Notes under the pieces: model-generated
The model's database searches: none
The model's input: only the letters and a program-made list of their open reading frames with translations
Told to the model about the DNA's origin: nothing
Assembly (NCBI GenBank): GCA_000435275.1
Contig: FR883868.1
Span: 10,665-74,664 of the forward strand
Source of the DNA: Clostridium sp. CAG:557
GTDB lineage: Bacteria; Bacillota; Clostridia; Oscillospirales; Acutalibacteraceae
Length of the DNA: 64,000 nt
Direction of reading: 5' to 3'
Shown here: positions 1 to 61,732 of the stretch, in pieces
Layout of the letters: the number at the start of each line of letters is the position of its first letter
How positions within the stretch are numbered: position 1 is the stretch's first letter
Position numbers and translations under genes: made by a program

Positions 1-213
1 ATTTTACAAAAAATACAGTCCATAAAACTACCTCCATAACAAAATTTTAATATTTCCTAAAATCTTTGGCTGGCACTGGCCAAAAATATTTAATAAATGG
101 AATATTTTTGTAAGTTTGCAATAAAATTGCAAACTTACCCATGCACCAAAAAATATATTTTTGGGTGCATGGGGCCAGTGCCTTATCGGGCCACATCAAA
201 ACTTTTCAAAATA

Positions 214-2844
214 CTAATTTGCAAAAGGAATAACCAGCTCATGAACTTTGCCTAACGCCAAATCAATTTTAGAAACATCTTTTATACCTGCCATCGCCAT
301 ATCTTTGCGGCCACCACCATTGCCACCAGTTAGCTTCGCAACTTCTTTGACTAAAGCTCCAGCATTTACGCCATTTTCTAGTGCTATTTTTCCCGCACTT
401 ATAATAATATTCGATTTTTCTGAGCCAATATTAGCCAACACAACAACGACATTTTGAAACCTAGATTTCAAATCGTCGCAAATAAGCTTCAACATGTCAT
501 TATCAAAATTTTCAACTTTAGATACAATTATTTTCAACGCACCAACATCTTTAGCAGAATTGATCAAAGTCTCAACTTTATGCGACGCCATTTCTAAATT
601 TAATTTATTAATTGTTTTTTCGCTGTCTTTAAGCCTATCAACTAAATGCTTGCACTCATTAACCAATTCTTCTCTTTGCTTAGTTTTCAGCACTTTTTGG
701 CAGTCATTAATTAGGTTTAATTCATCATAAAGAAGATTTAAAACTCCCATGGATGTTACTGCTTCGATTCTTCTTACGCCCGACGCCACAGAGCATTCTG
801 AAATAATTTTAAAAACACCTAACTGAGCAGTATTATGAACATGCGTTCCACCGCAAAGTTCTGTAGAAAAATCTCCTACCTTTACAACGCGAACAACTTT
901 CCCATACTTTTCACCAAATAAAGCCATTGCTCCAATTTTTTTTGCATCCGAAAGTGCCATTTCTGTAACATTAACCGGTTCAGATAATAAAATTTCATCA
1001 TTAATTAACTTCTCAATTTCTTTCAAGTCATCCGCAGAAAGTGCCGAAAAATGAGTAAAATCAAAGCGTAATCTGTTCTCATCAACAAGCTGGCCCGCCT
1101 GCTCAACGTGTTTGCCTAAAACTTTTCTTAACGCTGCTTGTAAAAGGTGGGCTGCAGTATGGTTCCTCATAATTTTATTTCTCTTCGCCTCATTAACGTT
1201 AGCAGTAACAGTGTCCCCAACTTTTAACATCCCAGTTTTGACCTCAGCTAAATGCAAATAAGCCCCAGACGCATTTTTTACTGTATCCAAAATCTCAATT
1301 TCAGCATCGTCTGATGTCAATAATCCCGAATCTCCAGCTTGGCCGCCCCCCAGTGCATAAAAAGGTGATTTTTCTAAAATTATTTCAACCTTATCTCCTA
1401 TCACTGTAAAATCGACAAATTTGTCATCTTTAATTATTTTTAAAACATTTGTTCGGATCTCTAGTTTATCATAACCCACAAAATTTGTTGCTTTAACACC
1501 AGAAAAATCCAAATTTTCGGTTGCCCAAGCCTGTGCTTTTGCATAAGTCCTAGCTGCACGGGCTCTATTTTTTTGCTCCAAAAGCAGCTCATTAAATTTG
1601 TTTTCATCAACAGTCATGCCACGCTCCGCCAAAATCTCTTTTGTCAGATCGATAGGAAATCCAAAAGTATCATTAAGTTTAAATGCAATTTCTCCAGGTA
1701 AAATTGAACCTTTTTTCTTATCAATCTCATTGTTTAAAAGTTCTAATCCCTGGTCAATTGTTTTTACAAAATTTTCTTCTTCAACATTTATTAATTTTTT
1801 AATAAAGCTTTCTTTTTGTCGCAATTCTGGATAAGCTTTTTCGTTTTCTTTGATGACTGTTTCGCAAACCTTTGACAAAAATGTACCTTCTATTCCCAAA
1901 AGTCTTCCATGTCTAGCTGCACGGCGCAATAAACGTCTTAAAACGTACCCTCTGCCCTCATTTGACGGCATAACTCCATCGCTAATCATAAAAGTAACGC
2001 TTCTAATATGATCTGTAATTACTCTCAAAGAAACATCTTTTTTAGCATCTTCTCCATATTTTACACCAGAAATTTTGCAAACATGACTCATTATATTTTT
2101 GACCGTATCCACAAGGAATAAATTGTCAACGCCCTGCATAATGCAAGCCAATCGTTCTAGACCCATTCCAGTATCTATATTTTTTCGGTCAAGATTGGAA
2201 TAATTATTTTTGCCGTCATTTTCAAACTGAGTAAATACTAAATTCCAAAACTCTATGTATCTGTCACAATCGCAACCAACTTTACAATTTGGCGAACCAC
2301 AACCATATTCTTCGCCCCTGTCAAAATAAATCTCTGAACAAGGGCCACAAGGGCCAGAACCATGTTCCCAAAAATTATCTTCTTTACCCAGACGAACAAT
2401 TTTAGACGGGTCTACACCAATTTTTTTCGTCCAAATTTCAAATGCTTCATCGTCATCTTCATAAATAGAAACCCATAGTCTATCAACCGGCAACTCTAAA
2501 ACTTTCGTGCAAAATTCCCATGCCCAAGCTGTTGCTTCATTTTTAAAATAATCTCCGAATGAAAAATTGCCAAGCATTTCAAAAAATGTACCATGTCGCG
2601 CAGTAATTCCAACACACTCAATATCAGGAGTTCTAATACATTTCTGGCACGTTGTAACTCTTTTTCGAGGCGGGGTAACTTCCCCTGTAAAATATTTTTT
2701 CATTGGCGCCATTCCAGAATTTATTAGCAATAAGCTATCGTCATTTTCTGGAATCAAAGAAAAACTCTCTAACTTTAAGTGCCCTTTAGATTCAAAAAAT
2801 GACATAAATTTTTCTCTCAATTCGTTTAAACCTGTCCACTTCAT
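214..2844 (-). CDS. alaS: alanyl-tRNA synthetase
   Basis: 877-aa ORF with class II aaRS AlaRS architecture and full-length similarity to AlaRS. ATG at 2844 is preceded by GGAAG. The ORF-track start at 2859 is a TTG further upstream. Confidence 0.95.
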   Translation of the reverse strand: MKWTGLNELREKFMSFFESKGHLKLESFSLIPENDDSLLLINSGMAPMKKYFTGEVTPPRKRVTTCQKCIRTPDIECVGITARHGTFFEMLGNFSFGDYFKNEATAWAWEFCTKVLELPVDRLWVSIYEDDDEAFEIWTKKIGVDPSKIVRLGKEDNFWEHGSGPCGPCSEIYFDRGEEYGCGSPNCKVGCDCDRYIEFWNLVFTQFENDGKNNYSNLDRKNIDTGMGLERLACIMQGVDNLFLVDTVKNIMSHVCKISGVKYGEDAKKDVSLRVITDHIRSVTFMISDGVMPSNEGRGYVLRRLLRRAARHGRLLGIEGTFLSKVCETVIKENEKAYPELRQKESFIKKLINVEEENFVKTIDQGLELLNNEIDKKKGSILPGEIAFKLNDTFGFPIDLTKEILAERGMTVDENKFNELLLEQKNRARAARTYAKAQAWATENLDFSGVKATNFVGYDKLEIRTNVLKIIKDDKFVDFTVIGDKVEIILEKSPFYALGGGQAGDSGLLTSDDAEIEILDTVKNASGAYLHLAEVKTGMLKVGDTVTANVNEAKRNKIMRNHTAAHLLQAALRKVLGKHVEQAGQLVDENRLRFDFTHFSALSADDLKEIEKLINDEILLSEPVNVTEMALSDAKKIGAMALFGEKYGKVVRVVKVGDFSTELCGGTHVHNTAQLGVFKIISECSVASGVRRIEAVTSMGVLNLLYDELNLINDCQKVLKTKQREELVNECKHLVDRLKDSEKTINKLNLEMASHKVETLINSAKDVGALKIIVSKVENFDNDMLKLICDDLKSRFQNVVVVLANIGSEKSNIIISAGKIALENGVNAGALVKEVAKLTGGNGGGRKDMAMAGIKDVSKIDLALGKVHELVIPFAN

Positions 2845-2924
2845 ATAAATCACTTCCAAAAATAAATAAACTCTAGAATATTTGCTACAAAAGCAAAATT
2901 AATTCATAAAATATTCTGATTTAG

Positions 2925-2953
2925 ATTATACCTTCGCTCAAATAAAAAGTCAA
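2925..2953 (-). promoter_or_regulatory. sigma-A type promoter for alaS (TTGACT-17-TATAAT on minus strand)
   Basis: rc of 2948-2953 = TTGACT and rc of 2925-2930 = TATAAT with a 17-nt spacer. The leader to the alaS ATG is only ~75 nt, too short for a T-box. Confidence 0.55.
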
Positions 2954-3014
2954 TTCAGCGCATAATTCAATGTATATTTACAGTTTTTACAAACATAAAA
3001 TTAAGTTGATATAC

Positions 3015-3044
3015 TTGACATTCTTAACAAAAAATTGGTATAAT
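3015..3044 (+). promoter_or_regulatory. strong sigma-A promoter (TTGACA-18-TGgTATAAT) driving the remA-gmk-rpoZ operon
   Basis: TTGACA at 3015-3020 and extended -10 TGGTATAAT at 3036-3044, read directly from the sequence. It is divergent from the alaS promoter. Confidence 0.65.
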
Positions 3045-3082
3045 TTAAGAAATTTATTTTTTCGCACAGACTTTTGCTCATC

Positions 3083-3190
3083 CGCAGTGCGCCCCCCGGA
3101 ATAAACACTAAAAAATATTGTTTATTCCGGTCTGCAACTGCTTTAAAGTTGCAGACGCAGTGCATTGAAAATGTACTGCGGGGGCGCTTC
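3083..3190 (+). promoter_or_regulatory. highly structured 5' leader RNA upstream of remA (three adjacent hairpins enclosed by a GC stem)
   Basis: Perfect 12-bp hairpin 3096-3107/3119-3130. A 9-bp hairpin 3131-3139/3147-3155. A third hairpin 3156-3164/3172-3180. The closing stem GCGCCCCC 3090-3097 pairs with GGGGGCGC 3180-3187. A direct repeat CGCAGTGC (3083-3090 and 3156-3163) allows alternative pairing. No U-tract follows. Confidence 0.4.
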
Positions 3191-3236
3191 TAAGGCAAGT
3201 TCACTCTTTATGTCAGCGAAAAAGGGAGAAATCTTC

Positions 3237-3512
3237 ATGAAATTTATTAATGTTGGCTTTGGAAATATGGTATCTTCAGCAAGAATTGTTACCATCGTAT
3301 GTCCAGATGCTGCTCCGATTAAGCGCGTAATAACCGATGCCAGAAATAAAAACGAGCTAATTGACGCAACTTGTGGAAGAAGAACCCGAGCCGTTATCGT
3401 TACTGACAGCAGACTTATCATACTTTCAGCTCTACAGCCAGAAACAATTTCCAATAGGCTCAAAGGTGACTTCTCAAATGATGAAGGAGATTTAGATTTA
3501 TATGAGCAATAA
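3237..3512 (+). CDS. remA: RemA/YlzA (DUF370) family regulator
   Basis: [12 protein letters not shown]...PIKR motif typical of RemA/YlzA. RBS AAAGGGAGA lies 7 nt upstream of ATG 3237. It sits immediately upstream of gmk as in Bacillus. The ORF-track start at 3165 was rejected. Confidence 0.85.
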
Positions 3513-4104
3513 AGGTTTACTTGTTGTTTTATCCGGTCCGTCTGGTTCTGGAAAAGATACAATTCTTGAACGGCTTGTTAATCTTGACAAAAACATTGTT
3601 AAGTCAATATCCGCTACAACTAGACCTTGCAGAATTGGCGAAGTTGATGGAAAAGATTACTTTTTTATTTCTGAACAGGATTTTTGTAACGCTATATCTG
3701 ATGAAAAATTGCTTGAATATACCAACTACTGTGGAAATTATTATGGAACCCTAAAAAATTTAGTAGAAGATTTACAAAATAATCAAAAAGATGTAATCTT
3801 AAAAATAGAAGTCGACGGAGCTAAACAAATTAAAGAAAAATGCCCTGACTCCTTAAGAATTTTTATATTGCCTCCATCTATGGACGACTTAAAAGATAGA
3901 CTATCTAAACGCGGAACTGAAACACCCGAAAATTTAGAAAAACGTTTGAATCGAGCCAAAGACGAAATAAAATTTTCGTCGGAATATGATTACATAGTCA
4001 TAAACGATGAAGTCGATAAATGTGCTCAAAATATATACTCAATTATAAATGCCGAAAAGTTTAAACTGCATAGAATGAAAAATATTATTAATGAGGTGCT
4101 TTAA
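3502..4104 (+). CDS. gmk: guanylate kinase
   Basis: P-loop GPSGSGKDT and guanylate kinase fold signature. Conserved remA-gmk-rpoZ order. Confidence 0.93.
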
Positions 4105-6800: not shown

Positions 6801-6821
6801 AATCTATGGAGGATGTTTATC

Positions 6822-7295
6822 ATGGCTATAAGAAATGTTGTTTTAGAAGGAGACCCTATTTTATATAAAAAATGTCGGATTGTCAAAAACTTTGATGCTC
6901 GGCTTGCTCAGCTTATTGATGACATGATTGAAACTATGCAATTGAAAAACGGTGTTGGACTGGCTGCTTCTCAAGTTGGCATTCTAAAAAGAGTTGTAGT
7001 TATACAAACCAATCTTGAAGAAAAACCTCTCGAATTAGTAAATCCTCAAATTACCGAAGTTTCTGGAAATCAGGAGGAAGTTGAGGGATGCTTGTCTTGT
7101 CCCGGTGAGTACGGAATTACTAAACGTCCTATGAAAGTCAAAGTTAAGGCTTTTGACCGCTTCGGAGCTGAGCATTTTTATGATGGCGAAGCTCTACTTG
7201 CTCGTGCTTTTTGTCATGAAATTGACCACCTGGATGGCATTTTATTCAAAAATCATGTTATCCGTATGCTGGATGATTCTGAATTGGAAAGCTGA
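6822..7295 (+). CDS. def: peptide deformylase
   Basis: Conserved motifs GVGLAASQVG, EGCLSCPG and HEIDHLDG. ATG 6822 lies 8 nt after GGAGGA. Confidence 0.93.
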   Translation: MAIRNVVLEGDPILYKKCRIVKNFDARLAQLIDDMIETMQLKNGVGLAASQVGILKRVVVIQTNLEEKPLELVNPQITEVSGNQEEVEGCLSCPGEYGITKRPMKVKVKAFDRFGAEHFYDGEALLARAFCHEIDHLDGILFKNHVIRMLDDSELES

Positions 7296-7300
7296 TTTTT

Positions 7301-7423
7301 GGGCACCGCCAGAGCCAACGCTATGCGTTAGCTCTGGCAAATAAAAAAATATTCTTTTGCTTTTGTTTTATGGTAAAATTTTTTAATTTGCCCAATGCAT
7401 CAAAGGATGCATTAGGCGGTGCC
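7301..7423. repeat. GC-rich structured intergenic element with terminal inverted repeats GGGCACCGCC / GGCGGTGCC (copy 1)
   Basis: 9-10 bp perfect terminal complementarity (7301-7310 vs 7415-7423). It encloses hairpin CCAGAGC...GCTCTGG (7309-7337), which is followed by a U-rich tract and acts as a likely def terminator. It also encloses hairpin AATGCATC...GATGCATT (7394-7413). A related element is at 40781-40895. Confidence 0.45.
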
Positions 7424-7467
7424 TCAAAACTATTTAGCTTTTAAAATCTTACCTTTGAGGTGAAAAA

Positions 7468-8391
7468 ATGAAAATTATATTTATGGGAACTCCTGACTTC
7501 GCTGTCCCTTGCCTTGAAAAATTAATAAACTCCGAGCATGAAATAGTCGCAGTTTTTACTCAGTCAGACAAAAAAAAAGGACGTGGATATACATTAACAG
7601 CACCTCCAGTTAAAGAATTATCGCTACAACACGGTATTAAGGTATTTCAACCAGAAACTTTAAAAACTCAAGAAATATCAAATTTAATTACATCACTAAA
7701 ACCAGATTTGATTGTTGTTGTAGCTTATGGTAAAATATTACCAATGGACATCTTAAAAATTCCATTACTGGGTTGTATAAATGTACACGGTTCATTGTTG
7801 CCAAAATATAGGGGCGCCGCACCTATACAGTGGTCAGTAATAAATGGTGAAAAAATTACTGGTGTTACAACTATGTTCATGGATAAAGGTCTTGATACTG
7901 GCGATATGATCTTAAAATCTGAAACAAAAATTGGCAAAAACGAAACTTCAGGTGAACTTTTTGACAGACTAAGCATTATGGGTGCAGAACTTTTAATTAA
8001 GACCTTAAATGAAATTGAATTGGGCAATATTTGTAGAAAAAAGCAAAATGACGAAATGGCTACTTATGCACCTATGCTAAATAAAGATTGGGCAAAAATT
8101 AACTGGAATGACTCTGCAGAAAAAATACACAATTTAGTAAGAGGCTTGAATCCTTGGCCAGTGGCTGTAACTATTTTGGATAATAAAAATTTAAAAATTT
8201 ATAAAACAAAAATTGCCAAATTTATGGGTGGAAATCCCGGAGAAATAAAAAGCGTTAATCCTTTCATTGTGGCTTGTGGAAATAATTCCGCCATCGAAAT
8301 TTTGGAATTACAATTAGAATCCAAGAAACGCTTAAATTCTTCAGACTTTTCTAGAGGTTACAAATTAAAATTAGGTACAATTTTGGGCTAG
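7468..8391 (+). CDS. fmt: methionyl-tRNA formyltransferase
   Basis: N-terminal formyl transferase domain (MKIIFMGTPDFAVP; HGSLLPKYRGAAPIQ) and a C-terminal domain. Conserved def-fmt adjacency. Confidence 0.93.
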   Translation: MKIIFMGTPDFAVPCLEKLINSEHEIVAVFTQSDKKKGRGYTLTAPPVKELSLQHGIKVFQPETLKTQEISNLITSLKPDLIVVVAYGKILPMDILKIPLLGCINVHGSLLPKYRGAAPIQWSVINGEKITGVTTMFMDKGLDTGDMILKSETKIGKNETSGELFDRLSIMGAELLIKTLNEIELGNICRKKQNDEMATYAPMLNKDWAKINWNDSAEKIHNLVRGLNPWPVAVTILDNKNLKIYKTKIAKFMGGNPGEIKSVNPFIVACGNNSAIEILELQLESKKRLNSSDFSRGYKLKLGTILG

Positions 8392-10942: not shown

Positions 10943-12994
10943 ATGGATAAATACATTGGAAAAAGATTGGATGGACGGTACGAAATTAATGAACTGCTCG
11001 GTTGTGGCGGTATGGCTAAAGTTTACAGCGCTTATGATATTATAGATGACCGAACTGTTGCTATAAAAATTTTAAAAGATGAATTTTTGAACAACAAAGA
11101 CTTTATTAGAAGATTTAAAAATGAATCTAAAGCGATTGCTGTGCTATCTCACCCCAATATCGTTAAGATTTATGATGTTAGCTTTGGTGACAGAATTCAA
11201 TATATCGTTATGGAGAATATCGATGGAATAACTTTGAAAGAATATATCGACAGGCAGCATACAATCAAATGGCGTGACGCTGTTCATTTTACAATTCAAA
11301 TATTAAAAGCTTTGCAGCACGCTCACGAAAAAGGTGTTGTTCATAGAGATGTCAAACCTCAAAATATTATGCTTTTAAAAGATGGAACTATCAAAGTTAC
11401 AGATTTTGGTATTGCAAGGTTCGCTAAAAACGAAACTCGAACTATGACTGAAAAGGCTATAGGTTCAGTCCATTACATTTCTCCTGAACAGGCTCGAGGA
11501 GACATAACAGATGAAAAATCTGACATATACTCTGTTGGTGTTATGCTTTATGAGATGTTAACAGGAAAACTGCCTTTTGAAGCTGACAATGCTGTCTCTG
11601 TAGCAATTATGCAAATGCAATCTGAACCAAAAAAATTAAGAGAAATTAATCCGGAAATTCCTGAAGGTTTAGAAGATATTACTTTAAAAGCTATGAAAAA
11701 AAGCTCTGACCATAGATATAAATCTGCTGAAGAAATGTTGGAAGCTATCGAAATGTTTAGAAAAAATCCTAGCATCCGCTTTGAATATAAATACTTTTCT
11801 GATAACGCTCCTACAAAATATCTTGATGCTATAAACAATATCAAAGAAAGTAAGTCAAAATCTGGCTACTCCGATGGATATACTTATAATGATGAAGAAC
11901 AAGAGCCTTCTGAAAAACGTTCTAAAGCTATAAACATTTTAATTGGTGCAGGAATTGCTCTTATAATCTTCCTTGTAGTAATTGGTCTTGGCTTAGTTTC
12001 CGGTTGGTTCGGTTTCGGTAGCAAAGATATCGATGTACCAAATTTTATTGGTATGAAAATTTCTGATATTGTCGATAATGATAAATATAAATTTAGCTGG
12101 AATATCGAACAAGCTTATGATTCTAGCAAGCCAGAAGGCGTTATAATCGATCAAGATCCAAAATCTGGAACTAAGAAAATAAAAGAAAATTCTCGAATAA
12201 CCTTAACTGTAAACAGTTCTGGCACTTTGGTTTCTATTCCTTCTGTACGCGGATTAACCCTTGATGCGGCCAAAGCAAAAATTAAAGATGCTGGCTTAGT
12301 TTATGAAGTTCTTACCGTTGAAGACAGCGATACAGCTGAAGGAATTGTTAAAGGGACTGACCCAAAAGAAGGAACCGAAATTGTTGTAAATAGCATGGTT
12401 AGAATTCTCGTAAGCAAAGGTCCTGCTGAAAAAAAGGTTACCGTCCCGGATGTTATAAATAAATCACTTTCTGACGCAACCAAAGAGCTTATAGAAAAAG
12501 GCCTTAAAGTCTCAGATAACATTATTAAAGAAACCAGTAACAAGGCTAAAGATACGGTACTATCTACAAATCCGTTACCAGGAGTTGAAGTAAACGAAGG
12601 AAGTGCTATTACATTAACAATCAGCTCTGGAGAATCTCAAGAAAAAACTTTAAAAATTAATGTAGATTTACCTTCCAGTGTAAATCACGAAGTCAGTATG
12701 AAAGTTTATATAAATGGTGTTATGGATTCAAGTAACTCAAAAACTATAATTCCTGCATACAATTCTAATTACTCATTCTCTGTTAAAGGTTCCGGTGAAA
12801 CAAAAACTATAATTGTAAATTTAGACGGGCAAAAATATAGAGTCTATGAGGTAAATTTTAGCAGCGAAACGGTTCGTGCAACCGAAAAGTATAATTTTAA
12901 TGAATCTTCTGCATCAACTACAAGCAGTAAATCTTCAAATAAAAATCATAGTATAACCGAAACCAGAATGAAAATCCGAAGAAGGCAAAATTAA
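10943..12994 (+). CDS. prkC: Ser/Thr protein kinase with PASTA repeats
   Basis: Hanks kinase motifs (GCGGMAKVY, HRDVKPQN, DFGIA), a transmembrane segment and three PASTA repeats, with a C-terminal S/T-rich extension. Conserved stp-prkC pair. Confidence 0.92.
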   Translation: MDKYIGKRLDGRYEINELLGCGGMAKVYSAYDIIDDRTVAIKILKDEFLNNKDFIRRFKNESKAIAVLSHPNIVKIYDVSFGDRIQYIVMENIDGITLKEYIDRQHTIKWRDAVHFTIQILKALQHAHEKGVVHRDVKPQNIMLLKDGTIKVTDFGIARFAKNETRTMTEKAIGSVHYISPEQARGDITDEKSDIYSVGVMLYEMLTGKLPFEADNAVSVAIMQMQSEPKKLREINPEIPEGLEDITLKAMKKSSDHRYKSAEEMLEAIEMFRKNPSIRFEYKYFSDNAPTKYLDAINNIKESKSKSGYSDGYTYNDEEQEPSEKRSKAINILIGAGIALIIFLVVIGLGLVSGWFGFGSKDIDVPNFIGMKISDIVDNDKYKFSWNIEQAYDSSKPEGVIIDQDPKSGTKKIKENSRITLTVNSSGTLVSIPSVRGLTLDAAKAKIKDAGLVYEVLTVEDSDTAEGIVKGTDPKEGTEIVVNSMVRILVSKGPAEKKVTVPDVINKSLSDATKELIEKGLKVSDNIIKETSNKAKDTVLSTNPLPGVEVNEGSAITLTISSGESQEKTLKINVDLPSSVNHEVSMKVYINGVMDSSNSKTIIPAYNSNYSFSVKGSGETKTIIVNLDGQKYRVYEVNFSSETVRATEKYNFNESSASTTSSKSSNKNHSITETRMKIRRRQN

Positions 12995-13020
12995 AAACTT
13001 TTTTATAATTTAAAGTTAAT

Positions 13021-13056
13021 CCACAATAATATTAAGATATTATTGTGGAATTTTTT
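13021..13056 (+). terminator. rho-independent terminator after prkC
   Basis: 10-bp stem CCACAATAAT/ATTATTGTGG with an 8-nt loop, followed by AATTTTTT. Confidence 0.7.
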
Positions 13057-13092
13057 ATAATAAAAACTTTGTTTCCTTTAAAAATAAAACAA

Positions 13093-13124
13093 GCATGAGG
13101 CGCGCGATATAGTGCGCCTCATGC
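13093..13124 (-). terminator. rho-independent terminator after hpf (likely bidirectional)
   Basis: 11-bp GC-rich stem GCATGAGGCGC/GCGCCTCATGC with loop GCGATATAGT. A U-tract follows on the minus strand. Confidence 0.65.
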
Positions 13125-13136
13125 CAATATAGTAAC

Positions 13137-15920: not shown

Positions 15921-16430
15921 TCAACAAATATTTTTATCCAAATTAATTTTTGTTTTAGCCTTTATTTTTTTACGCATTTTCTGCAAAAATTTTTTCGGAG
16001 ATTTTGAATTTTTTATAAATTTGGATTTCATAGTCTTAAATTTATTTGTCAGTTTTCTCATTTTATCCTTTGGAATTTTTGATATAAAAAATCTTTTAAG
16101 TTTAGATAGCCATTTACTTAAAAATTTTACTACAGTTAAAATAAGTTTATAAACGAATTTTCCTACAGTGACTCGATATATCAGCCACCCAATCGCTTCT
16201 CCCAAAACAATATAAACCCGAATTTCTCCACTGTTCATTACTAAAATGTACGTGAATGTGATAATCGCACTTAAAACAAAGTATATTACATCTTCAAAAA
16301 AAATTCGCTTTAAATTCACTTTTAGCACAGCATTCATTATCCTAAAGCCATCAAAAAATAAGCTTAAAAAAGCCCCCAAAAGCATCGCAAACAAAAAAAT
16401 AGTTATCTGTGAAGTTACCATCGTGCCCAT
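15921..16430 (-). CDS. yabQ: spore cortex biosynthesis protein YabQ-like membrane protein
   Basis: Hydrophobic N-terminal region with a lysine-rich tail. Located between yabP and divIC. Confidence 0.6.
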   Translation of the reverse strand: MGTMVTSQITIFLFAMLLGAFLSLFFDGFRIMNAVLKVNLKRIFFEDVIYFVLSAIITFTYILVMNSGEIRVYIVLGEAIGWLIYRVTVGKFVYKLILTVVKFLSKWLSKLKRFFISKIPKDKMRKLTNKFKTMKSKFIKNSKSPKKFLQKMRKKIKAKTKINLDKNIC

Positions 16431-16441
16431 CTTTTTACCTC

Positions 16442-16723
16442 TTACCTAAACAGTTTAGAGAAAAAACCTCTCTCTGCTGGCCTATCTTCTGCGTACTCCA
16501 ATGAATATACTTCTCCATCAAGCTCTAAATCGCCGCTGTCTAAATTTATCTTATTTATGTGTAGATTACTTCCCTTTATTGTCAGTTCGCCCAAATCTGT
16601 ATATGCCACCACCGCGTTATCATCGAAACTATCTACATCTAAAACTCCTGATATATTTAATGATTTTCTCTCTTTTAATATCAAATTATGTGAAAGTTTT
16701 ATGTCTTTTTTTTCTTCTATCAT
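16442..16723 (-). CDS. yabP: sporulation protein YabP
   Basis: YabP/YqfC family sequence (HNLILKERKSLNISGV...) in the expected position. Confidence 0.8.
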   Translation of the reverse strand: MIEEKKDIKLSHNLILKERKSLNISGVLDVDSFDDNAVVAYTDLGELTIKGSNLHINKINLDSGDLELDGEVYSLEYAEDRPAERGFFSKLFR

Positions 16724-37400: not shown

Positions 37401-37847
37401 GTGAAACCAACAGAAAATGAATATTCTAAAATGTCTGACGATGCTTCCCCAGCTTCTCCAATGATAAAAAATATCTTTTGGGCTTTTATTTCCGGAGGAA
37501 TCATTTGTACAATCGGACAATTTTTAATAAGTTTTTATCAAAATTACTGCGGTTTAAATTTAAAAGATTCTCGTGCTGCTGTATCTGTAACTTTAGTCGG
37601 AGCCGGAGCTTTGCTCACTGCTCTGCGTGTGTACGATAACATTGCAAAACACGCTGGCGCCGGAACACTTGTTCCCATAACAGGTTTTGCAAATTCTATC
37701 GTCGCACCTGCTATTGAGTTTAAAAGTGAAGGTCAAATCATGGGAATCGGTGCTAAAATGTTCATCATTGCTGGACCGGTTTTGGTCTTTGGTGTAACCG
37801 CCTCAACTATCTATGGCCTAATTCTATGGATTTTTAAATTATTTTAA
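37401..37847 (+). CDS. spoVAC: stage V sporulation protein AC-like (SpoVAC/SpoVAEB family) membrane protein
   Basis: ~150 aa with four transmembrane segments and the conserved VPITGFANSIVAPAIEFKSEG region of SpoVAC. It is solitary here (no spoVAD/spoVAEb adjacent). Confidence 0.75.
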   Translation: MKPTENEYSKMSDDASPASPMIKNIFWAFISGGIICTIGQFLISFYQNYCGLNLKDSRAAVSVTLVGAGALLTALRVYDNIAKHAGAGTLVPITGFANSIVAPAIEFKSEGQIMGIGAKMFIIAGPVLVFGVTASTIYGLILWIFKLF

Positions 37848-39737: not shown

Positions 39738-40751
39738 TTACTTTAATTTATCAATACTTAGCGTCGCAATCGCATTTAAATCCATTGCAGCAACATTGCC
39801 GTTCTGATATTCATAATATGCTTGCGCACCAACCATTGCTGCATTATCTCCACAAAGTGATAGCTCTGGTGAATAAACTCGCCAGTTTCTTTTTTTGCAC
39901 TCTTCTGATAATCTTTTTCTCAACAAAGTATTGGCTGAAACGCCTCCCGCAATAACCAATTTTTTGTAACCAAAATTCTCCGCGGCTTTAATAAAATTGT
40001 TTATCAAGCAGTCTACAACTGCAGCTCTAAACGAGGCGGACATATCTTCAACGTTTATTAATTCTCCTTTTTGTGCTGCATTATGAATTTGATTTATTAC
40101 CGCAGTTTTAAGTCCAGAAAAGCTAAAATCATATTCAGCATTAGACACCGTCGGGCGCGGCAGTTTATAAACATTCTCATTACCTTTTTCCGCTGCTTTA
40201 TCAAGATGAACCCCTCCAGGATATGGCATTCTCATCGTTCGTGCAACTTTATCAAAAGCTTCCCCTGCTGCATCGTCTCTTGTTCGGCCTATCACTTTTA
40301 AGTCTGCATAACCTTTAACTTCAATTATATGGCTGTGCCCACCAGAAACCACTAAACATAAAAACGGTGGTGTCAAATCTTGGTGAGTTATGTAATTAGC
40401 AGCTATATGTGACCTTAAATGATGAACTGGTATCAAAGGCAAGTTTGAAGACAAAGCCAAACCTTTTGCAAAATTTACTCCCACAAGTAAAGAACCAATA
40501 AGTCCTGGGGCGTAAGTTACAGCTATGGCATTTATATTTTTCAAATTGCAATTTGCGGCCTTCAGCGCCTCACTTGTTACACCAGAAATCGCTTCTATGT
40601 GCATTCTAGAAGCTATCTCTGGCACTACTCCACCATATATTTTATGTTCCTCCACCTGCGATGCCACTATTGATGATAAAATTCTTCTTCCATTTTCAAC
40701 CACTGCTGCAGCCGTTTCATCACAAGAACTTTCTATTGACAAAATTTTCAT
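39738..40751 (-). CDS. tsaD: tRNA N6-adenosine threonylcarbamoyltransferase
   Basis: Kae1/TsaD motifs (MKILSIESSCDETAAAV; HHLRSH; SGGVSAN). Confidence 0.93.
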   Translation of the reverse strand: MKILSIESSCDETAAAVVENGRRILSSIVASQVEEHKIYGGVVPEIASRMHIEAISGVTSEALKAANCNLKNINAIAVTYAPGLIGSLLVGVNFAKGLALSSNLPLIPVHHLRSHIAANYITHQDLTPPFLCLVVSGGHSHIIEVKGYADLKVIGRTRDDAAGEAFDKVARTMRMPYPGGVHLDKAAEKGNENVYKLPRPTVSNAEYDFSFSGLKTAVINQIHNAAQKGELINVEDMSASFRAAVVDCLINNFIKAAENFGYKKLVIAGGVSANTLLRKRLSEECKKRNWRVYSPELSLCGDNAAMVGAQAYYEYQNGNVAAMDLNAIATLSIDKLK

Positions 40752-40780
40752 AAAATTTCCTTCCTCACCTGCTAATCTTT

Positions 40781-40895
40781 AGGGGCACCGCGAGAAGTGC
40801 TTTGCACTTCTGTGCACCGATATCATCGGCGCACTTGCCGAGTTCTCAAACCGAAATAATTTTTAATATGAAAAAGAACTCGTCGCGGTGCCCCT
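40781..40895. repeat. GC-rich structured intergenic element with 13-bp terminal inverted repeats AGGGGCACCGCGA / TCGCGGTGCCCCT (copy 2)
   Basis: Perfect 13-bp TIR (40781-40793 vs 40883-40895). Internal hairpins GAAGTGC-TTT-GCACTTC, CCGAT-ATC-ATCGG and CGAGTTC...GAACTCG. Inserted between rimI and tsaD. It shares GGGCACCGC...GCGGTGCCC with the element at 7301-7423. Confidence 0.5.
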
Positions 40896-40914
40896 ACATA
40901 AAAAATACTAAAAC

Positions 40915-41382
40915 TTAATTTAAATATCTCGTCATAATAATCGCATCTTCTTTTGGGTAAGAATAAAAATTTTTTCTTACTCCTGCCGATAAAAAATTTA
41001 ATTTTTGATATAGAGAAACCGCAGAAACATTAGATTTCCTAACCTCAAGAGAAATGAATTTTAATTTTTTATCCTGAGCAAACTTTACAAGTGCTTCTAA
41101 TAATTTCTTAGCAACTCCATTACCCCTATACTGTGGAAAGACTGCAATATTTGTGATGTACCCCTCGTCAAGAACGAAAGTAAAACCAGTATAGCCAAAA
41201 ACTTTTTCATTTTTATCAACAGCTACCAAAAAACTAGCATTCTCATTGTTTATTTCTTCTTTCAACGAAGTTTTCGACCACGGAACAGAAAAACATATTT
41301 TTTCCAACCGCGCAACTTCCTCCAAATGACGTTCTGACATTAATTTTATTTTAAATTCAATCATTTTAGTCTTCACCGACAT
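40915..41382 (-). CDS. rimI: ribosomal-protein-alanine N-acetyltransferase (GNAT)
   Basis: GNAT fold motifs (Q.RGNGVAKKLL). Conserved rimI-tsaD adjacency. Confidence 0.85.
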   Translation of the reverse strand: MSVKTKMIEFKIKLMSERHLEEVARLEKICFSVPWSKTSLKEEINNENASFLVAVDKNEKVFGYTGFTFVLDEGYITNIAVFPQYRGNGVAKKLLEALVKFAQDKKLKFISLEVRKSNVSAVSLYQKLNFLSAGVRKNFYSYPKEDAIIMTRYLN

Positions 41383-46476: not shown

Positions 46477-46597
46477 CACCTAAAATTTAAAATTAATATT
46501 ATGTATTGATAAGTTTATTTTTGATGTTTATTTTTATTAAAATCCGGTAAAAATATTTTTATCAAAACTATAATAAAATTTTCGGAGTGTGAAAAAG

Positions 46598-46969
46598 GTG
46601 ACTATAAAACGTGGGGACATCTTTTATGCTGATTTAAGTCCTGTTGTAGGCTCAGAACAAGGTGGAATTAGGCCGGTTTTAATCGTTCAAAATGACGTCG
46701 GAAACAAATTCAGTCCAACAGTAATCGCAGCCGCTATCACAAGTCAACATTCAAAGGCCGACCTTCCTACTCACATACAACTTCAAGCTCATGGATGTGG
46801 TCTTTCTAAAGATTCCGTAGTACTGTTGGAGCAAATTCGAACTCTCGATAAAAAACGTTTAAAAGAAAAAATGGGCTGTCTGGATACTTTTGCAATGAAT
46901 TTGGTAGACAAAGCGCTGTCTATAAGTTTCGGTCTTTTAAATAACTACGCTATAAAAGAAGCTACATAA
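46598..46969 (+). CDS. mazF: PemK/MazF-family endoribonuclease toxin (EndoA/NdoA-like)
   Basis: Near-colinear similarity to Bacillus EndoA ([39 protein letters not shown]...LPTH....LLEQIRT.DK.RL). GTG start at 46598 lies 10 nt after GGAG. No antitoxin ORF is adjacent. Confidence 0.85.
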
Positions 46970-50492: not shown

Positions 50493-52064
50493 ATGAGCAA
50501 AAAAACTTTCTATATCACAACACCAATATATTATCCATCTGGTAATCCTCATCTTGGCCACAGCTATTGCACTGTTGCAACTGATGTCATGGCTAGATAC
50601 AAAAGATTGATGGGTTATGACGTTATGTTTTTAACCGGCACTGACGAGCATGGACAAAAAATAGAATTAAACGCGGCAAAAGAAAATATGCCACCTAAAG
50701 AATACGTCGATGAACTAGTTTCTAAATTTAGAAAACTCTGGGATATTATGGATATCTCTAACGACCGATATATACGCACTACAGATGATTATCACGTTAA
50801 AGCTGTGCAAAAAATATTTAAAAAACTTTATGATAAAGGTGAAATATATAAAGGAAATTATGAGGGTTGGTACTGCACTCCTTGTGAATCTTTTTGGACC
50901 GAAACTCAATTAGTAGATGAAAAATGTCCAGATTGTGGCAGAGAAGTCAAATTGACAAAAGAAGAAGCCTACTTTTTTAAATTATCAAAGTACTCTGATA
51001 AACTTTTAAAATTATATGAAGAACATCCAGAATTTTTGGAGCCAGAAAGCCGCCGCAACGAGATGATTAGCTTTATAAAAAGCGGTCTTACTGACCTTTG
51101 TGTAAGCCGAACCAGCTTTAGTTGGGGAATTCCGGTTGATTTTGACAACAAACACATCGTTTATGTATGGCTTGACGCTCTTACAAACTATATTACTGCT
51201 CTTGGATATGGTTCTGGTGATGACTCTGATTTCAAAAAATATTGGCCTGCTGATGTTCACTTTGTCGGCAAAGAAATTGTACGCTTTCATGCAATTATTT
51301 GGCCGGCAATACTTATGGCGCTCGATTTGCCTCTTCCTCACAAAATTTACGGGCATGGCTGGTTGCTTTTCGGTGATGGAACTAAGATGTCTAAATCTAA
51401 GGGCAATGTCGTTGATCCCAAAACTTTATGTGACAGATATGGTGTTGACGCTATAAAGTACTTTTTGATGCGTGAAATTCCATTCGGATCTGACAGTATT
51501 TTCACAAACGAAGCGTTGATTAACAGAATAAACTCAGATTTAGCAAATGACCTCGGGAACCTTGTTTCTAGGACTACTGCTATGGTTGAAAAATACTTTT
51601 CTGGAAATTTACCTGGAAAATTGGAAAGTGACGACATCGACAATGAATTAATTTTATTAACAACATCTTTACGAAAAAAATATGAAAATCATATGGAAAA
51701 ATTCCAGTTTTCATGCGCACTCGCAGAAGTATGGAAAGTTATCGCTCGTGCAAACAAATATATTGATGAAACCATGCCTTGGGCACTCAGTCATGACCCA
51801 GAAAAAACAAGTCGGTTGGCCTGCGTTTTATATAATTTATGTGAAGTTTTACGCATTGTTGCAATTTTGATTACGCCATTTATGCCAAATACTTCACCGC
51901 TAATTGCAGAACAAATTGGTGCCAGTGGCAATATGCTCACTTGGTGCAAGGCGGACAAATGGGGATTACTTTCACAAAATGCAAAAATAAAAAAAGGTGC
52001 TGTGCTTTTCCCTCGAATCGACGCTCAAAAAGAACTGGAAGAATTAAATAAATGTGTCAAATAG
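50493..52064 (+). CDS. metG: methionyl-tRNA synthetase (short form, no C-terminal tRNA-binding domain)
   Basis: HIGH-type motif (PSGNPHLGHSY), zinc knuckle CxxC...CxxC and KMSKS. Confidence 0.93.
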   Translation: MSKKTFYITTPIYYPSGNPHLGHSYCTVATDVMARYKRLMGYDVMFLTGTDEHGQKIELNAAKENMPPKEYVDELVSKFRKLWDIMDISNDRYIRTTDDYHVKAVQKIFKKLYDKGEIYKGNYEGWYCTPCESFWTETQLVDEKCPDCGREVKLTKEEAYFFKLSKYSDKLLKLYEEHPEFLEPESRRNEMISFIKSGLTDLCVSRTSFSWGIPVDFDNKHIVYVWLDALTNYITALGYGSGDDSDFKKYWPADVHFVGKEIVRFHAIIWPAILMALDLPLPHKIYGHGWLLFGDGTKMSKSKGNVVDPKTLCDRYGVDAIKYFLMREIPFGSDSIFTNEALINRINSDLANDLGNLVSRTTAMVEKYFSGNLPGKLESDDIDNELILLTTSLRKKYENHMEKFQFSCALAEVWKVIARANKYIDETMPWALSHDPEKTSRLACVLYNLCEVLRIVAILITPFMPNTSPLIAEQIGASGNMLTWCKADKWGLLSQNAKIKKGAVLFPRIDAQKELEELNKCVK

Positions 52065-54360: not shown

Positions 54361-54399
54361 ATAAGCAACCAGAAATTATTTCTGATTGCTTATTTTTAT
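54361..54399. terminator. bidirectional terminator between the AGCS symporter gene and rplA
   Basis: Long hairpin ATAAGCAACCAGAAAT/ATTTCTGATTGCTTAT flanked by T-runs on both strands. Confidence 0.6.
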
Positions 54400-55091
54400 A
54401 AACCGACTTTATTCGGATTTAATCTAATTCCAGGTCCCATAGTCGTTGAAACCACACAAGATTTGATATATTGACCTTTTGCAGCGGCAGGTTTTGCTTT
54501 AACAATCGCACCGAGCAAGGCATCAAAATTTTCGAGTAATTTTTCTTTGCCAAAAGAAGCTTTTCCAATTGGGCAGTGAATAATGTTAGTTTTATCCAAG
54601 CGATACTCAATCTTACCAGCTTTTGCCTCTTTAACTGCTTTAGCGATATCTGTAGTAACTGTACCAGCTTTTGGGTTTGGCATAAGCCCTCTCGGGCCTA
54701 AAACTTTACCCAACCGACCAACCAAACCCATCATATCTGGAGTTGTGATGAGAACATCAAAATCCATCCAACCTTCATTTTGAATTTTCGTGGTCATTTC
54801 CTCAGCGCCAACAAAATCAGCGCCGGCTTGTTCTGCCAATTTTACGTTATCACCTTTGCAGATTGCAAGAACCTTAACTTTTTTGCCGGTACCATTTGGC
54901 AAAACAATTGCACCGCGCACTTGTTGATCTGCGTGACGAGAATCAACGCCTAATTTTACATGAACTTCTACGGTTTCGTCAAATTTAGCAGTAGCCGTTC
55001 TGACACAAATATCCATAGCTTCATCGTTTTCATATAACTTTGTTTTGTCGATAAGTTTAGCACTATCGACATATTTTTTACCGTGTTTCAT
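54396..55091 (-). CDS. rplA: 50S ribosomal protein L1
   Basis: Full-length L1 similarity. nusG-rplK-rplA order. Confidence 0.95.
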
Positions 55092-55148
55092 TGGTTTTCC
55101 TCCCTATTGAGTGGTAAAATCGGATTATTTCCTCCCACCCGGGTTAAA

Positions 55149-55574
55149 TCAATCGATTACTTCTATACCCATGCTGCGCGCCGTTCCAGCAATCATACTC
55201 ATTGCCGTATCGACATTAGCTGCATTTAAATCTGGCATCTTTTGTTCAGCAATCTTCTTGACCTGTTCGCGGGTAATTTTAGCAACCTTGTTTTTATTCG
55301 GAACGCCAGAACCGCTTTCTATGCCGCAAGCCTTTTTGATAAGAACTGCAGCCGGTGGCGTTTTGGTCACAAAAGTAAATGAACGGTCAGCGTAAACCGT
55401 AATAACAACAGGAATAATCAAACCTGCGTCATTTTTTGTGCGCTCATTAAATTCCTTAGTGAACGCCATGATGTTGACACCATGCTGACCTAATGCCGGG
55501 CCTACAGGCGGCGCCGGAGTTGCCTTGCCAGCAGGAATCTGAAGCTTAATAAAGCCGGTGACTTTTTGAGCCAT
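55149..55574 (-). CDS. rplK: 50S ribosomal protein L11
   Basis: [37 protein letters not shown]11 signature. ATG 55574 follows GGAGGTG. Confidence 0.95.
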
Positions 55575-55699
55575 TTTTTGCACCTCCAAAATTAGTGGTA
55601 AAACGCGGAACCAATTAAAAATTTAGTAGTTCCTCCCACATTGGGGCAATCAAGCCCCGCGCAATAAATAACACTTAAGTTACTCATTACAAAAAGAAA

Positions 55700-59616: not shown

Positions 59617-60042
59617 GTGAATAAAATGTATTCTATAACCATTTTTAGCTCGCAAACTGTCGACGGACAAACTTGTAAATCTAAAATTACTGTGCCGTGC
59701 AAGTTTAATTTTAAAAATAATCTTGCTCTGATTTCCTACGATGAAATTGTCGAAAACAAAAAATTCTCTTCAAATGTTCAAATCTATGGCACAGGTAAAA
59801 TAACTATTTCTCGGAAAGGAACTCAATCATATAAATTTCTTTTTGAGAAAAATAAACGGCATATTTGCACTTACTTTACAGAGTTTGGAAATATTAAAAT
59901 TGGTGTTTTTACTCACGAAGTCAGTTGCTGTTTCGAAAAAAATTCCTGTAAAATCGTATTAATTTATTCACTCGACACAAATAATACACATTTAAGCAAA
60001 AATAAGGTCATTATCAATGTTAAGGAGGATAACTATGTCTAA
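59617..60042 (+). CDS. DUF1934 (YwiB-like beta-barrel) protein
   Basis: ~140 aa. A gene of this family characteristically lies immediately upstream of argS in Firmicutes. Overlaps the argS start. Confidence 0.7.
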   Translation: MNKMYSITIFSSQTVDGQTCKSKITVPCKFNFKNNLALISYDEIVENKKFSSNVQIYGTGKITISRKGTQSYKFLFEKNKRHICTYFTEFGNIKIGVFTHEVSCCFEKNSCKIVLIYSLDTNNTHLSKNKVIINVKEDNYV

Positions 60043-61732
60043 AATCGTATTAAAAACCATTGACGACCTAAAGGAAATGCTTCATAGCGCCATTATGTAT
60101 GCTATTAAAAAAGAGGACTTGCCTCGTATTAATGAAAATATAAAGGTAAATATTGAAGTTCCTGCAGACCACAAAAACGGCGATTTTTCTTCTAATGTCG
60201 CTATGGTGTATGCTAAAAATTTTAAAATGGCTCCACTTCAAATCGCAAAAATTATATGCAATAATTTGAGTCTAGACCACACTATGTTCGAACGTTTTGA
60301 AATTGCAGGTCCTGGATTTATCAATTTTTTCTTATCGAAAGAGTTTTTTGCTTCGATTATAAATGATATTTTGTTACTTAAAGAAAATTATGGTCGTTCA
60401 GACTTTGGTCAAAATAAAAAAGTTATGGTAGAATTTGTGTCTGCAAATCCTACAGGCCCAATGCACATGGGAAATGCTCGCGGTGGAGCTTTGGGGGATT
60501 GTCTGGCAGCTGTCCTCGATGTTGCCGGTTACAATGTAAAAAGAGAATTTTACATCAACGACGCAGGCAATCAGATAGATAAATTTGGCGTTTCACTTGA
60601 AACCAGATATCTACAAATTTTTGACGGCGAAGAAAATCATACTTTGCCTGAAGATAGCTATCACGGCGAGGATATAAAAGATTTGGCACAAGAATTCGCA
60701 CTTATAAACGGCGATACTTACTTAAGTGTCGACTCAGAAATTAGAAAAAAAGCGTTAATTGACTTCTCTTTACCTAAAAATATAAATAAAATGAAGTCAG
60801 ATTTAGAAAAATATAGAATAACTTTTGACAGGTGGTTTCACGAAATAGATTTGCATAACGACGGCGAAATATATGAAACTATCGAAATTTTGAAAAACAA
60901 CGGCATGACTTATGAGTTAGACGGTGCATTATGGTATAAAGCAACCGATTTTGGTGCCGAAAAAGATGAAGTTTTAGTGCGTAAAAATGGTAATCCAACT
61001 TACTTTGCCGCCGATATTGCTTATCACAGGAATAAATTCGTAAAGCGCGGATTTGACATCTGTATCGATATCTGGGGCGCAGACCATCACGGTCACGTCG
61101 CCAGAATGAAAGGCGCTATGAATGCCATCGGGCTCGATGAAAACAAGCTTGACGTTATTTTAATGCAGCTAGTTAAACTCGTTAAAGACGGCCAAATTGT
61201 GCGCATGAGTAAGCGAACCGGCAAGGCTATTCAGCTTTCCGACTTGCTGGATGAAGTTTCCGTAGACGCCGCCAGATTTATTTTTAATATGCGTGAAGCC
61301 AACTCTCAGATGGACTTTGACCTTGACCTCGCTGTTAAAGAAGATGCGCAAAATCCGGTTTATTACGTTCAATATGCTCATGCCAGAATTTGCAGCATTT
61401 TAAAAGCGCTTGAAAAAGAAAATATTAATCCAAAAGCTTGTTCCGCTGAAGAATTATTTTTGCTGCGCGAGCCGGAGGAAAAAGAGTTGATTCGACATCT
61501 TTCTATGTACACCAGCGAAATAATCGAGGCTGCCAAAACTTATGACCCTGCTAGAATCACTCGCTATGTTATTACTTTGGCAACGTTATTTCACAAGTTT
61601 TACAATTCTTGTCGAGTTAAATGCAGTGACGAACACCTTATGTTCGCTCGAATTAATCTTTGTCTGTGTGTGAAAATTGTCATTAGCAATATTTTAAATA
61701 TGTTTAAAATTAATGTTCCAGAAAACATGTAA
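60035..61732 (+). CDS. argS: arginyl-tRNA synthetase
   Basis: Class I motifs: HIGH-like (ANPTGPMHMGNARG), KMSK variant (MSKRTG) and a DALR anticodon-binding domain. ATG 60035 follows AGGAGG. Confidence 0.93.
   Translation: MSKIVLKTIDDLKEMLHSAIMYAIKKEDLPRINENIKVNIEVPADHKNGDFSSNVAMVYAKNFKMAPLQIAKIICNNLSLDHTMFERFEIAGPGFINFFLSKEFFASIINDILLLKENYGRSDFGQNKKVMVEFVSANPTGPMHMGNARGGALGDCLAAVLDVAGYNVKREFYINDAGNQIDKFGVSLETRYLQIFDGEENHTLPEDSYHGEDIKDLAQEFALINGDTYLSVDSEIRKKALIDFSLPKNINKMKSDLEKYRITFDRWFHEIDLHNDGEIYETIEILKNNGMTYELDGALWYKATDFGAEKDEVLVRKNGNPTYFAADIAYHRNKFVKRGFDICIDIWGADHHGHVARMKGAMNAIGLDENKLDVILMQLVKLVKDGQIVRMSKRTGKAIQLSDLLDEVSVDAARFIFNMREANSQMDFDLDLAVKEDAQNPVYYVQYAHARICSILKALEKENINPKACSAEELFLLREPEEKELIRHLSMYTSEIIEAAKTYDPARITRYVITLATLFHKFYNSCRVKCSDEHLMFARINLCLCVKIVISNILNMFKINVPENM

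Follow-up and report, generated by a model that had tools for sequence, protein, structure and literature searches.

Palindromic, folding repeats that reside between genes have been described in several systems. In Proteobacteria, REP elements and their composite BIME forms (PMC2817692, PMC3184786) are built from one imperfect hairpin, 20-40 nt long and conserved at its head, which is present in at least 100 copies that share sequence and is tied to RAYT transposases. The Correia elements of Neisseria, together with ERIC, RUP and BOX (PMC10969869, PMC2229807), measure approximately 100-200 bp, and copies of such bacterial MITEs have their whole sequence in common, usually possess target-site duplications (TA in the case of Correia) and vary between strains. 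When co-transcribed, Correia elements undergo RNase III cleavage at their inverted repeats (PMC10969869), and ERIC (PMC10969869) and REP elements (PMC2817692, PMC3184786) are likewise co-transcribed. The GC clusters of yeast mitochondria (PMC4478555) and the attC sites of integrons are further systems against which a structured intergenic element can be compared.

The window analysed here, by which we mean the whole stretch of 64 kb from Clostridium sp. CAG:557, contains four elements of approximately 100-135 nt each (E1-E4), one of which is a GC-rich insert between def and fmt. All have a common design, with folding producing a closing stem and three hairpins that together form a four-way junction (4WJ), and with 0-5 unpaired bases at the junction in every element and orthologue examined (Table 1). 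The original prediction, made on the sequence of the def-fmt spacer, had described this insert and its inverted termini, as well as a second element at 40781-40895. Both are present, the coordinates of the first and its hairpins H1 and H3 being confirmed, and the second having the boundaries given for E2 in Table 1. E3 and E4 are additional to these and have the same architecture, both with zero unpaired bases at the junction; they came to light when inverted repeats rich in GC were sought and the sequence enclosed by them was folded. The small family that had been proposed is hence borne out by four elements with one architecture, three of which share GGCACCG termini.

Table 1. Positions, composition and predicted folding energies of the junction elements and associated features (window coordinates unless a locus is named)
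Feature	Position	Strand	Description	MFE (kcal/mol) and z-score
E1	7297-7429	+	133 nt; between def (6813-7295) and fmt (7468-8391)	-58.5, z -8.35 (+ strand); -61.7, z -9.1 (- strand)
E1 closing stem, 5' arm	7297-7309	+	UUUU + GGGCACCGC	
E1 closing stem, 3' arm	7416-7429	+	GCGGTGCC-T-CAAAA; pairs with 5' arm, T7424 bulged	
E1 hairpin H1	7310-7336	+	CAGAGCCAACGC-TAT-GCGTTAGCTCTG	
E1 hairpin H2	7337-7391	+	GCAAAT...ATTTGC base, variable AT-rich apex	
E1 hairpin H3	7392-7415	+	CCAATGCATC-AAAG-GATGCATTAG	
E2	40780-40896	-	Between rimI (40915-41382, -) and tsaD (39738-40751, -); closing stem TAGGGGCACCGCGA/TCGCGGTGCCCCTA	-60.4, z -9.2 (+ strand); -65.7, z -9.47 (- strand, that of the flanking genes)
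E2 terminal pair	40782-40894		GGGGCACCGCG...CGCGGTGCCCC	
E2 hairpins	40794-40810, 40812-40834, 40839-40882			
E3	67-193	-	Between alaS (214-2844, -) and HIT-family gene (hit) just beyond window start	-64.8 on one strand and -60.2 on the other; z about -8.5
E3 closing stem	72-81 / 173-182		GGCACTGGCC / GGCCAGTGCC	
E3 hairpins	82-109, 111-137, 138-172			
E4	3089-3187	+	5' UTR of remA (3237-3512); closing stem GCGCCCCC/GGGGGCGC	-64.3, z -8.9
E4 hairpins	3097-3129, 3130-3156, 3157-3179		No unpaired junction bases	
Sigma-70-type promoter match	3015-3044	+	TTGACA-18-TATAAT preceded by TG; 12/12 consensus positions	
Locus with acetyltransferase gene	L212 6213-6986; L220 3197-3971		Acetyltransf_3 gene of 166 aa between two E2 copies	

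Amongst sliding 130-nt folds of the 64 kb, E1-E4 rank as the top four in stability, their windows of this size lying at -56 to -64 kcal/mol where the mean is -19 to -21 (sd approximately 6.5), and the fifth-best (-46 kcal/mol) is probably a pair of convergent terminators. Since the window is only about 34 % GC, the elements are conspicuous as GC-rich islands. Each of the four occupies either a 5' UTR or a spacer that separates co-directional genes; E3 lies directly downstream of alaS and upstream of the HIT-family gene, its gene context being read from locus L123, the extra 10 kb of which contains no element. The fifth-best region comprises two strong back-to-back hairpins at 12990-13135, between convergent PASTA-kinase and S30AE/hibernation-factor genes, which are probably terminators for both directions. 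Both this region and that at 37575-37715 were considered as junction elements and rejected, being structured, yet not four-way junctions.

With regard to E1, the spacer between the end of def (7295) and the start of fmt (7468) is 172 nt long and contains GGGCACCGCC at 7301-7310 and GGCGGTGCC at 7415-7423. Position 7414 is an A in the window and a G in six of the eight aligned strain loci, as well as in the metagenomic locus L216; a G here restores the C7393-G7414 pair of H3, and this commoner allele has zero unpaired bases at the junction. The single A/G site is the only difference noted amongst the eight strains, every one of which carries E1, E3 and E4 in near-identical form. The presence of elements differs between species; among the eight strains of this species there is no presence/absence variation.

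The scope of the element search comprised the window, 10-kb flanks and orthologous loci in relatives. E1 orthologues occur in L209, L210, L130 and L211, in which Fmt is 84, 82, 74 and 73 % identical, respectively, and are absent from L218 (Fmt 70 %, 58-nt spacer), L219 (66 %, 19-nt spacer) and L131 (60 %), placing the clade limit between presence at Fmt identities of at least 73 % and absence at 70 % or below. More broadly, def adjoins fmt in 76 of 80 species-level relatives, the gap being no more than approximately 85 nt in 66 of these 76, and a GGCAC...GTGCC stem of at least 8 bp is found in 0 of the 80 related-species loci. A junction scan of the same loci revealed no comparable element in the 36 that are of low GC content and lie outside the clade (628 kb altogether), and its matches in GC-rich genomes were dismissed as composition artefacts. 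Insertion inside operons, as had been suggested, accords with these short spacers and with the 57 nt that separate rimI from tsaD in L213. The comparison of orthologous def-fmt junctions that had been advocated shows short spacers that lack the element in distant relatives and E1 in the four nearer loci.

A consensus fold (RNAalifold) of E1 orthologues from five species is again a four-way junction, with 42 pairs, in which 91.6 % of cells are paired as opposed to approximately 42 % with slid partners. Compensatory double changes affect nine pairs, a result matched by 0 of 500 shuffles. The four stems have diverged in distinct manners. H1 has been almost wholly replaced in sequence between species, both sides having changed in 6 of 10 pairs, and the hairpin is always kept perfect. 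The stem base of H2 is conserved with compensated changes (GCAAATC.../...GATTTGC versus GACACATC.../...GATGTGTC in L211), and its AT-rich apex has no alignment between species. Within H3, seven core pairs are invariant in the five species (core ATGCATC-AAA-GATGCAT). In the closing stem 6 of 10 pairs are invariant, the GGCACCGC core is fixed, and the A/U extension is flipped in L211, from UUUU/AAAA to AAAAA/UUUUU. That pairing and some sequence have been kept long-term at orthologous sites while the remaining spacer diverges calls for selection at each locus.

Both L209 and L210 possess orthologues of E3, in which 10 of 54 pairs are compensatory, and of E4, in which 8 of 42 are. Approximately 45 nt upstream of E4 lies the sigma-70-type promoter match of Table 1, which agrees perfectly with the consensus, is conserved in both of these relatives and presumably places E4 in the remA transcript. 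A consensus scan revealed no terminator-like site at E4. The possibility that E4 is a T-box of alaS was rejected, as it is located downstream of this + strand promoter match and alaS has a promoter-like site of its own at 2953-2925. A different four-way junction occupies the same position upstream of remA in L211, and no junction element is found there in L130, L218 or L219. A synteny break coincides with the junction element upstream of remA (window 2845-3236, L211 5576-5760, L130 5588-5756), the neighbour of remA at the break being divergent alaS in the window, L209 and L210, yicC in L211, and other genes in L130, L218 and L219. In L219, positions 1-3930, upstream of the remA operon, harbour 12 small Nif11-type ORFs resembling peptide precursor genes.

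The E2 locus displays a more complex history. Whilst the window has the order rimI-E2-tsaD, without an acetyltransferase gene or any detectable remnant of one, L212 and L220 possess two copies in the arrangement rimI-E2a-acetyltransferase-E2b-tsaD. In L214, a locus sharing its contig with L211, the order is rimI-acetyltransferase-junction element-tsaD, and L213 has neither element nor acetyltransferase gene. In both L212 and L220, similarity of E2a to E2b ends exactly at GGGGCACCGCG...CGCGGTGCC, with the flanks being unrelated. Out of 109 positions, only 2 distinguish the copies in L212, compared with approximately 8 positions in L220, and this disparity suggests gene conversion in L212. The acetyltransferases of L212 and L214 are 57.5 % identical, which is close to the value for rimI (58 %), and the gene is hence vertically inherited. 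On its left, E2 of the window is flanked by sequence resembling that on the rimI side of E2a, and on its right by sequence resembling that on the tsaD side of E2b. From these arrangements the simplest history would have two steps: a single copying of the element into the neighbouring spacer, followed in the lineage of the window by recombination between the direct copies, which would have deleted the gene between them. This is the one documented duplication event, and a local segmental event could mimic transposition.

The window contains four copies of the core GGCACCGC, where 0.38 would be expected, and 0 of 100 shuffles reached four. E1 and E2 share the terminal inverted repeats GGGCACCGC/GCGGTGCC, and the closing stem takes the form GGCACCG(C/G) in three of the four element types (E1, E2 and E3), the E3 stem being GGCAC(T/C)GGCC; that of the L209 and L210 orthologues of E3, GGCACCGGCC, is taken as ancestral. 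The termini of E4 differ from those of E1-E3. Beyond the stem, the interiors of E1, E2, E3 and E4 have no mutual alignment, and a shared interior is confined to the E2a/E2b pairs of L212 and L220. A 9-mer, AAAAATATT, is found repeatedly in the AT-rich arms of E3, E4 and E1 (82-90, 101-109, 3111-3119 and 7345-7353) and also in the E2 copies of L212 and L220; it has 29 copies in the window against 11 expected, with approximately 0.2 expected inside the elements.

Comparison with catalogued RNAs and mobile DNA provided no assignment. Rfam returned no match for the whole window at the gathering score, and noise only around E1-E4 at permissive E-values. ARAGORN called no tRNA or tmRNA, and a tRNA-like reading was set aside, as the elements fail its defining features. 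Neither a blastn search of E1 and E2 against phage and plasmid collections nor a literature search for such four-way-junction elements produced a match or description. The pattern GGGCACCGC-N80-110-GCGGTGCC has at least 120 matches in viral contigs, those listed all being chance occurrences in contigs of 49-65 % GC, and a metagenome scan for the termini plus AAAAATATT retrieved three matches, i.e. E1 of the same species (L216) and two that form no junction. E1-E4 lack the GC-rich hairpin with immediate U-tract of an intrinsic terminator, their sense-strand 3' flanks in the window not being U-rich; TTTTT follows E1 only in the L211 orthologue. The family matches no known RNA family.

Several observations accompany these searches. 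No T-box leader was detected by Rfam upstream of alaS (214-2844, -), metG (50493-52064, +) or argS (60017-61732, +), nor a ribosomal-protein leader at rplK-rplA (54396-55589, -), and a lack of both is unusual for a Firmicute. The sole recombinase among the scanned ORFs of the window is a large serine recombinase (62300-63802, -; Resolvase, Recombinase and Zn_ribbon_recom domains), which is unrelated to the elements; the other genes are housekeeping ones. Beside it, 61832-62284 (-) encodes an asparagine synthase fragment covering profile positions 221-353 only, and the arrangement is probably an integrated element that splits asnB, with the window ending inside it. A PemK/MazF-type toxin gene (46589-46969, +) adjoins degV, and the same neighbourhood is present in L213 and L214. 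In the 34 % GC genome of L209, a strongly GC-rich region (16400-16660), with no obvious coding potential by eye, partly overlaps a called LRR gene; it was considered as a member of the E1-E4 family and is unrelated.

With respect to the level at which the structure operates, 807 of 861 pairs (94 %) across 17 elements are Watson-Crick, and sense and antisense strands fold with similar energies. Loops are mostly 3 nt in length, and the order of AT-rich and GC-rich arms varies between elements. Pairing of this kind is less RNA-like than that of typical structured RNAs and fits DNA palindromes. The sense strand has 29 G.U pairs and the antisense strand 16, a modest sense-strand excess that does not settle which strand is functional.

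The explanation we place foremost, with a confidence somewhat short of an even chance, is that E1-E4 constitute a lineage-specific palindromic family of mobile origin, kept under structural selection and co-transcribed as a stable RNA junction. A mobile origin is what we infer from the shared termini, the exact-boundary duplicate and the fact that, in a single narrow clade, several operons have gained an element. The family would have arisen in, or entered, the ancestor of a narrow Acutalibacteraceae clade, where a copy-and-insert process recognising termini or fold, rather than interior, may have lodged elements in the transcribed spacers of housekeeping operons, to be followed by vertical inheritance under selection that preserves base pairing. 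As every copy either separates co-directional genes or follows a promoter, and no U-tract comes after any of them, the elements should be read through, and folding in the mRNA would produce a junction of -58 to -91 kcal/mol. Such a junction would separate two cistrons and might serve as an RNase barrier or processing point, such that the flanking mRNA segments would differ in stability; precedents are the co-transcribed Correia and ERIC elements (PMC10969869) and REP elements (PMC2817692, PMC3184786). The regulatory-RNA action and the uncoupling of the downstream gene that had been suggested are likewise putative. In the DNA, copies could recombine, leading to duplication, gene conversion and loss of a gene between copies. 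Against a mobile family stand the unrelated interiors, which are unexpected from simple copy-paste, and the differing termini of E4, along with the lack of target-site duplications, of any transposase among the scanned ORFs and of presence/absence variation in the eight strains. The predominance of Watson-Crick pairs, the near-equal folding of both strands and the varying arm order likewise weigh against this reading, offering no proof of action at the RNA level.

It is possible, and on balance rather unlikely, that the elements are instead a dedicated host-encoded cis-acting RNA, for example one that is bound at its GGCACCGC duplex by an RNase or RNA-binding protein specific to the clade; the likeness between copies would then reflect a common partner, and not mobility. 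All copies are in presumably transcribed positions and oriented with their flanking genes, are kept at orthologous sites with compensatory changes where the flanking spacer has diverged beyond alignment, and are fixed in all strains examined, and to these points can be added the sequence conservation of the E1 closing stem and H3, and the modest sense-strand excess of G.U pairs. However, conservation of unpaired nucleotides, loops or junction bases, by which riboswitches and protein-binding RNAs are defined, is lacking, the arm order is not conserved between elements, and the mostly minimal 3-nt loops and predominance of Watson-Crick pairs on both strands, like the want of an Rfam family match, are not what such an RNA would lead one to expect. 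In addition, four unrelated operons would need to have gained the structure in one narrow clade, with sister lineages lacking it (L213, and L130 in the case of E4), and the exact-boundary duplicate needs a DNA-level copying step. By analogy with attC/IntI or REP/RAYT, the elements could also be folded DNA sites of recombination or transposition, i.e. Holliday-junction-like single strands whose sequence-specific closing duplex is cut and joined by a putative HUH or tyrosine-type enzyme, mediating gene gain and loss inside operons. The conservation of termini and structure over interior sequence, the exactly three hairpins and near-perfect junction in every element examined, the equal folding of both strands, the acetyltransferase gene that is flanked by E2a and E2b in two relatives and missing from the window, and the junction element at the synteny break upstream of remA would all be accommodated. 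We nevertheless regard this as improbable, given that the elements possess neither the core sites of attC nor its extrahelical bases, that neither an integrase nor a Y1 transposase (nor a tyrosine recombinase) is near any copy examined, that copies have been long stable at orthologous sites, and that the acetyltransferase is vertically inherited and no mobile cassette, with homologous recombination between direct repeats explaining its loss.

A further possibility concerns the def-fmt spacer as originally interpreted. There, the insert had been read as a set of modules between inverted repeats, in which def would have a terminator, and fmt an internal promoter together with a 5'-UTR hairpin. 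The strong hairpin at 7310-7336 does exist, an AT-rich -10-like hexamer is seen at a similar position of the H2 apex in several orthologues (alignment by eye), and the invariant H3 would be at the 5' end of a transcript initiating there. However, the first hairpin is followed by an A-rich run, CAAATAAAAAAATATTC, and not by the U-tract that had been reported, and a consensus scan called no promoter-like or terminator-like site in 7296-7467. The internal promoter is not upheld, as neither its -35-like ATTCTT nor the apex sequence is conserved among orthologues. The supposed 5'-UTR hairpin is one arm of a single four-way junction and no separate module, all four stems co-vary as one junction, and elements of this architecture are found at three further loci, making the modular reading quite improbable. 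As for mutually unrelated GC-rich palindromes arising by chance, the unalignable interiors are what one would expect from them, but the excess of GGCACCGC, folding z-scores of -8 to -9.5, the ranking of E1-E4 as the four most stable windows of the 64 kb, the covariation in orthologues and the lack of any counterpart in 628 kb of low-GC relatives refute this idea, and leave it next to no credibility. A bolder view, which we consider doubtful, is of a new kind of structure-defined genetic unit, in which the near-perfect junction, akin to an immobile Holliday junction, and its GGCACCGC duplex would be recognised by a putative clade-specific enzyme or binding protein, copied by fold in the manner of attC, kept as operon punctuation, and able to drive gene gain and loss in housekeeping operons.

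Should the palindromic family of mobile origin be correct, it would add an undescribed class of element to a widespread uncultured gut lineage of the Acutalibacteraceae; the exact Fmt, AlaRS and TsaD proteins of the window occur in hundreds of assembly-index blocks (>500). Very stable four-way junctions would reside in the spacers of essential genes related to translation (def-fmt, rimI-tsaD, alaS-hit and the remA operon), providing a clean natural case of structure-only conservation with fast compensatory turnover. They would also be a test case in Firmicutes for the manner in which palindromic repeats come between tightly coupled genes of an operon and determine the stability of individual mRNA segments, and a documented case of an operon remodelled by such repeats, which were duplicated, underwent gene conversion and caused the gene between them to be deleted. 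For RNA-discovery pipelines applied to AT-rich genomes, such GC-rich intergenic signals ought not to be taken for riboswitches.

In relation to known systems, the resemblance to integron attC sites lies in the conservation of termini and fold rather than interior, in size (57-141 nt for attC), and in location 3' of an ORF between co-directional genes, with the copy-ORF-copy order in L212 and L220 resembling a cassette array. Unlike attC, E1-E4 have no RYYYAAC/GTTRRRY cores within their termini (GGCACCGC...GCGGTGCC or GCGCCCCC...GGGGGCGC), no extrahelical bases, no single bulged hairpin and no integron integrase or attI, and the genes concerned are vertically inherited housekeeping genes; the attC class was therefore rejected. 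With the bacterial MITEs, including Correia, ERIC, RUP and BOX, E1-E4 have in common their approximate length and terminal inverted repeats, an intergenic location that extends to the inside of operons, and stable folding with, presumably, co-transcription. The MITE-like character originally ascribed to the family is seen in its terminal repeats and the exact-boundary copy E2a/E2b, and not in its interiors or flanks. The interiors cannot be aligned, and direct reading of the flanks of E1-E4, E2a and E2b found no consistent direct repeat (the TA...TA at E2 is part of a palindrome and is absent at other copies). Furthermore, the elements are inherited vertically across species, are fixed in the strains examined and form a junction rather than a long hairpin, and no transposase is present among the scanned ORFs of the window or in the Pfam tables of neighbouring loci. 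Lacking a shared interior and target-site duplication, they were not placed in the MITE class.

REP and BIME elements are similarly GC-rich palindromes between co-transcribed genes and at gene 3' ends, can form stable stem-loops and are co-transcribed (as E1-E4 would be), give rise to composite forms from inverted units, make no target-site duplication and can persist at orthologous sites. Membership of this class was rejected because the units of E1-E4 are 100-135-nt four-way junctions, numbering four in 64 kb, rather than short hairpins in high copy; each has a unique interior, 7-9 nt of terminal sequence are shared, and no RAYT was seen in approximately 200 kb of in-clade sequence. The mitochondrial GC clusters of yeast (PMC4478555), for their part, are GC-rich palindromes in an AT-rich genome, mostly intergenic and of constrained structure. 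Their units fuse and reshuffle to give larger composite palindromes, and as hot spots of recombination they cause adjacent DNA to be inserted or deleted. Whilst E1-E4 differ from these clusters in being on a bacterial chromosome, in always having three hairpins plus a stem, and in their low copy number, it is the yeast clusters that provide the closest analogy for both the origin of the family and its effects on the genome.
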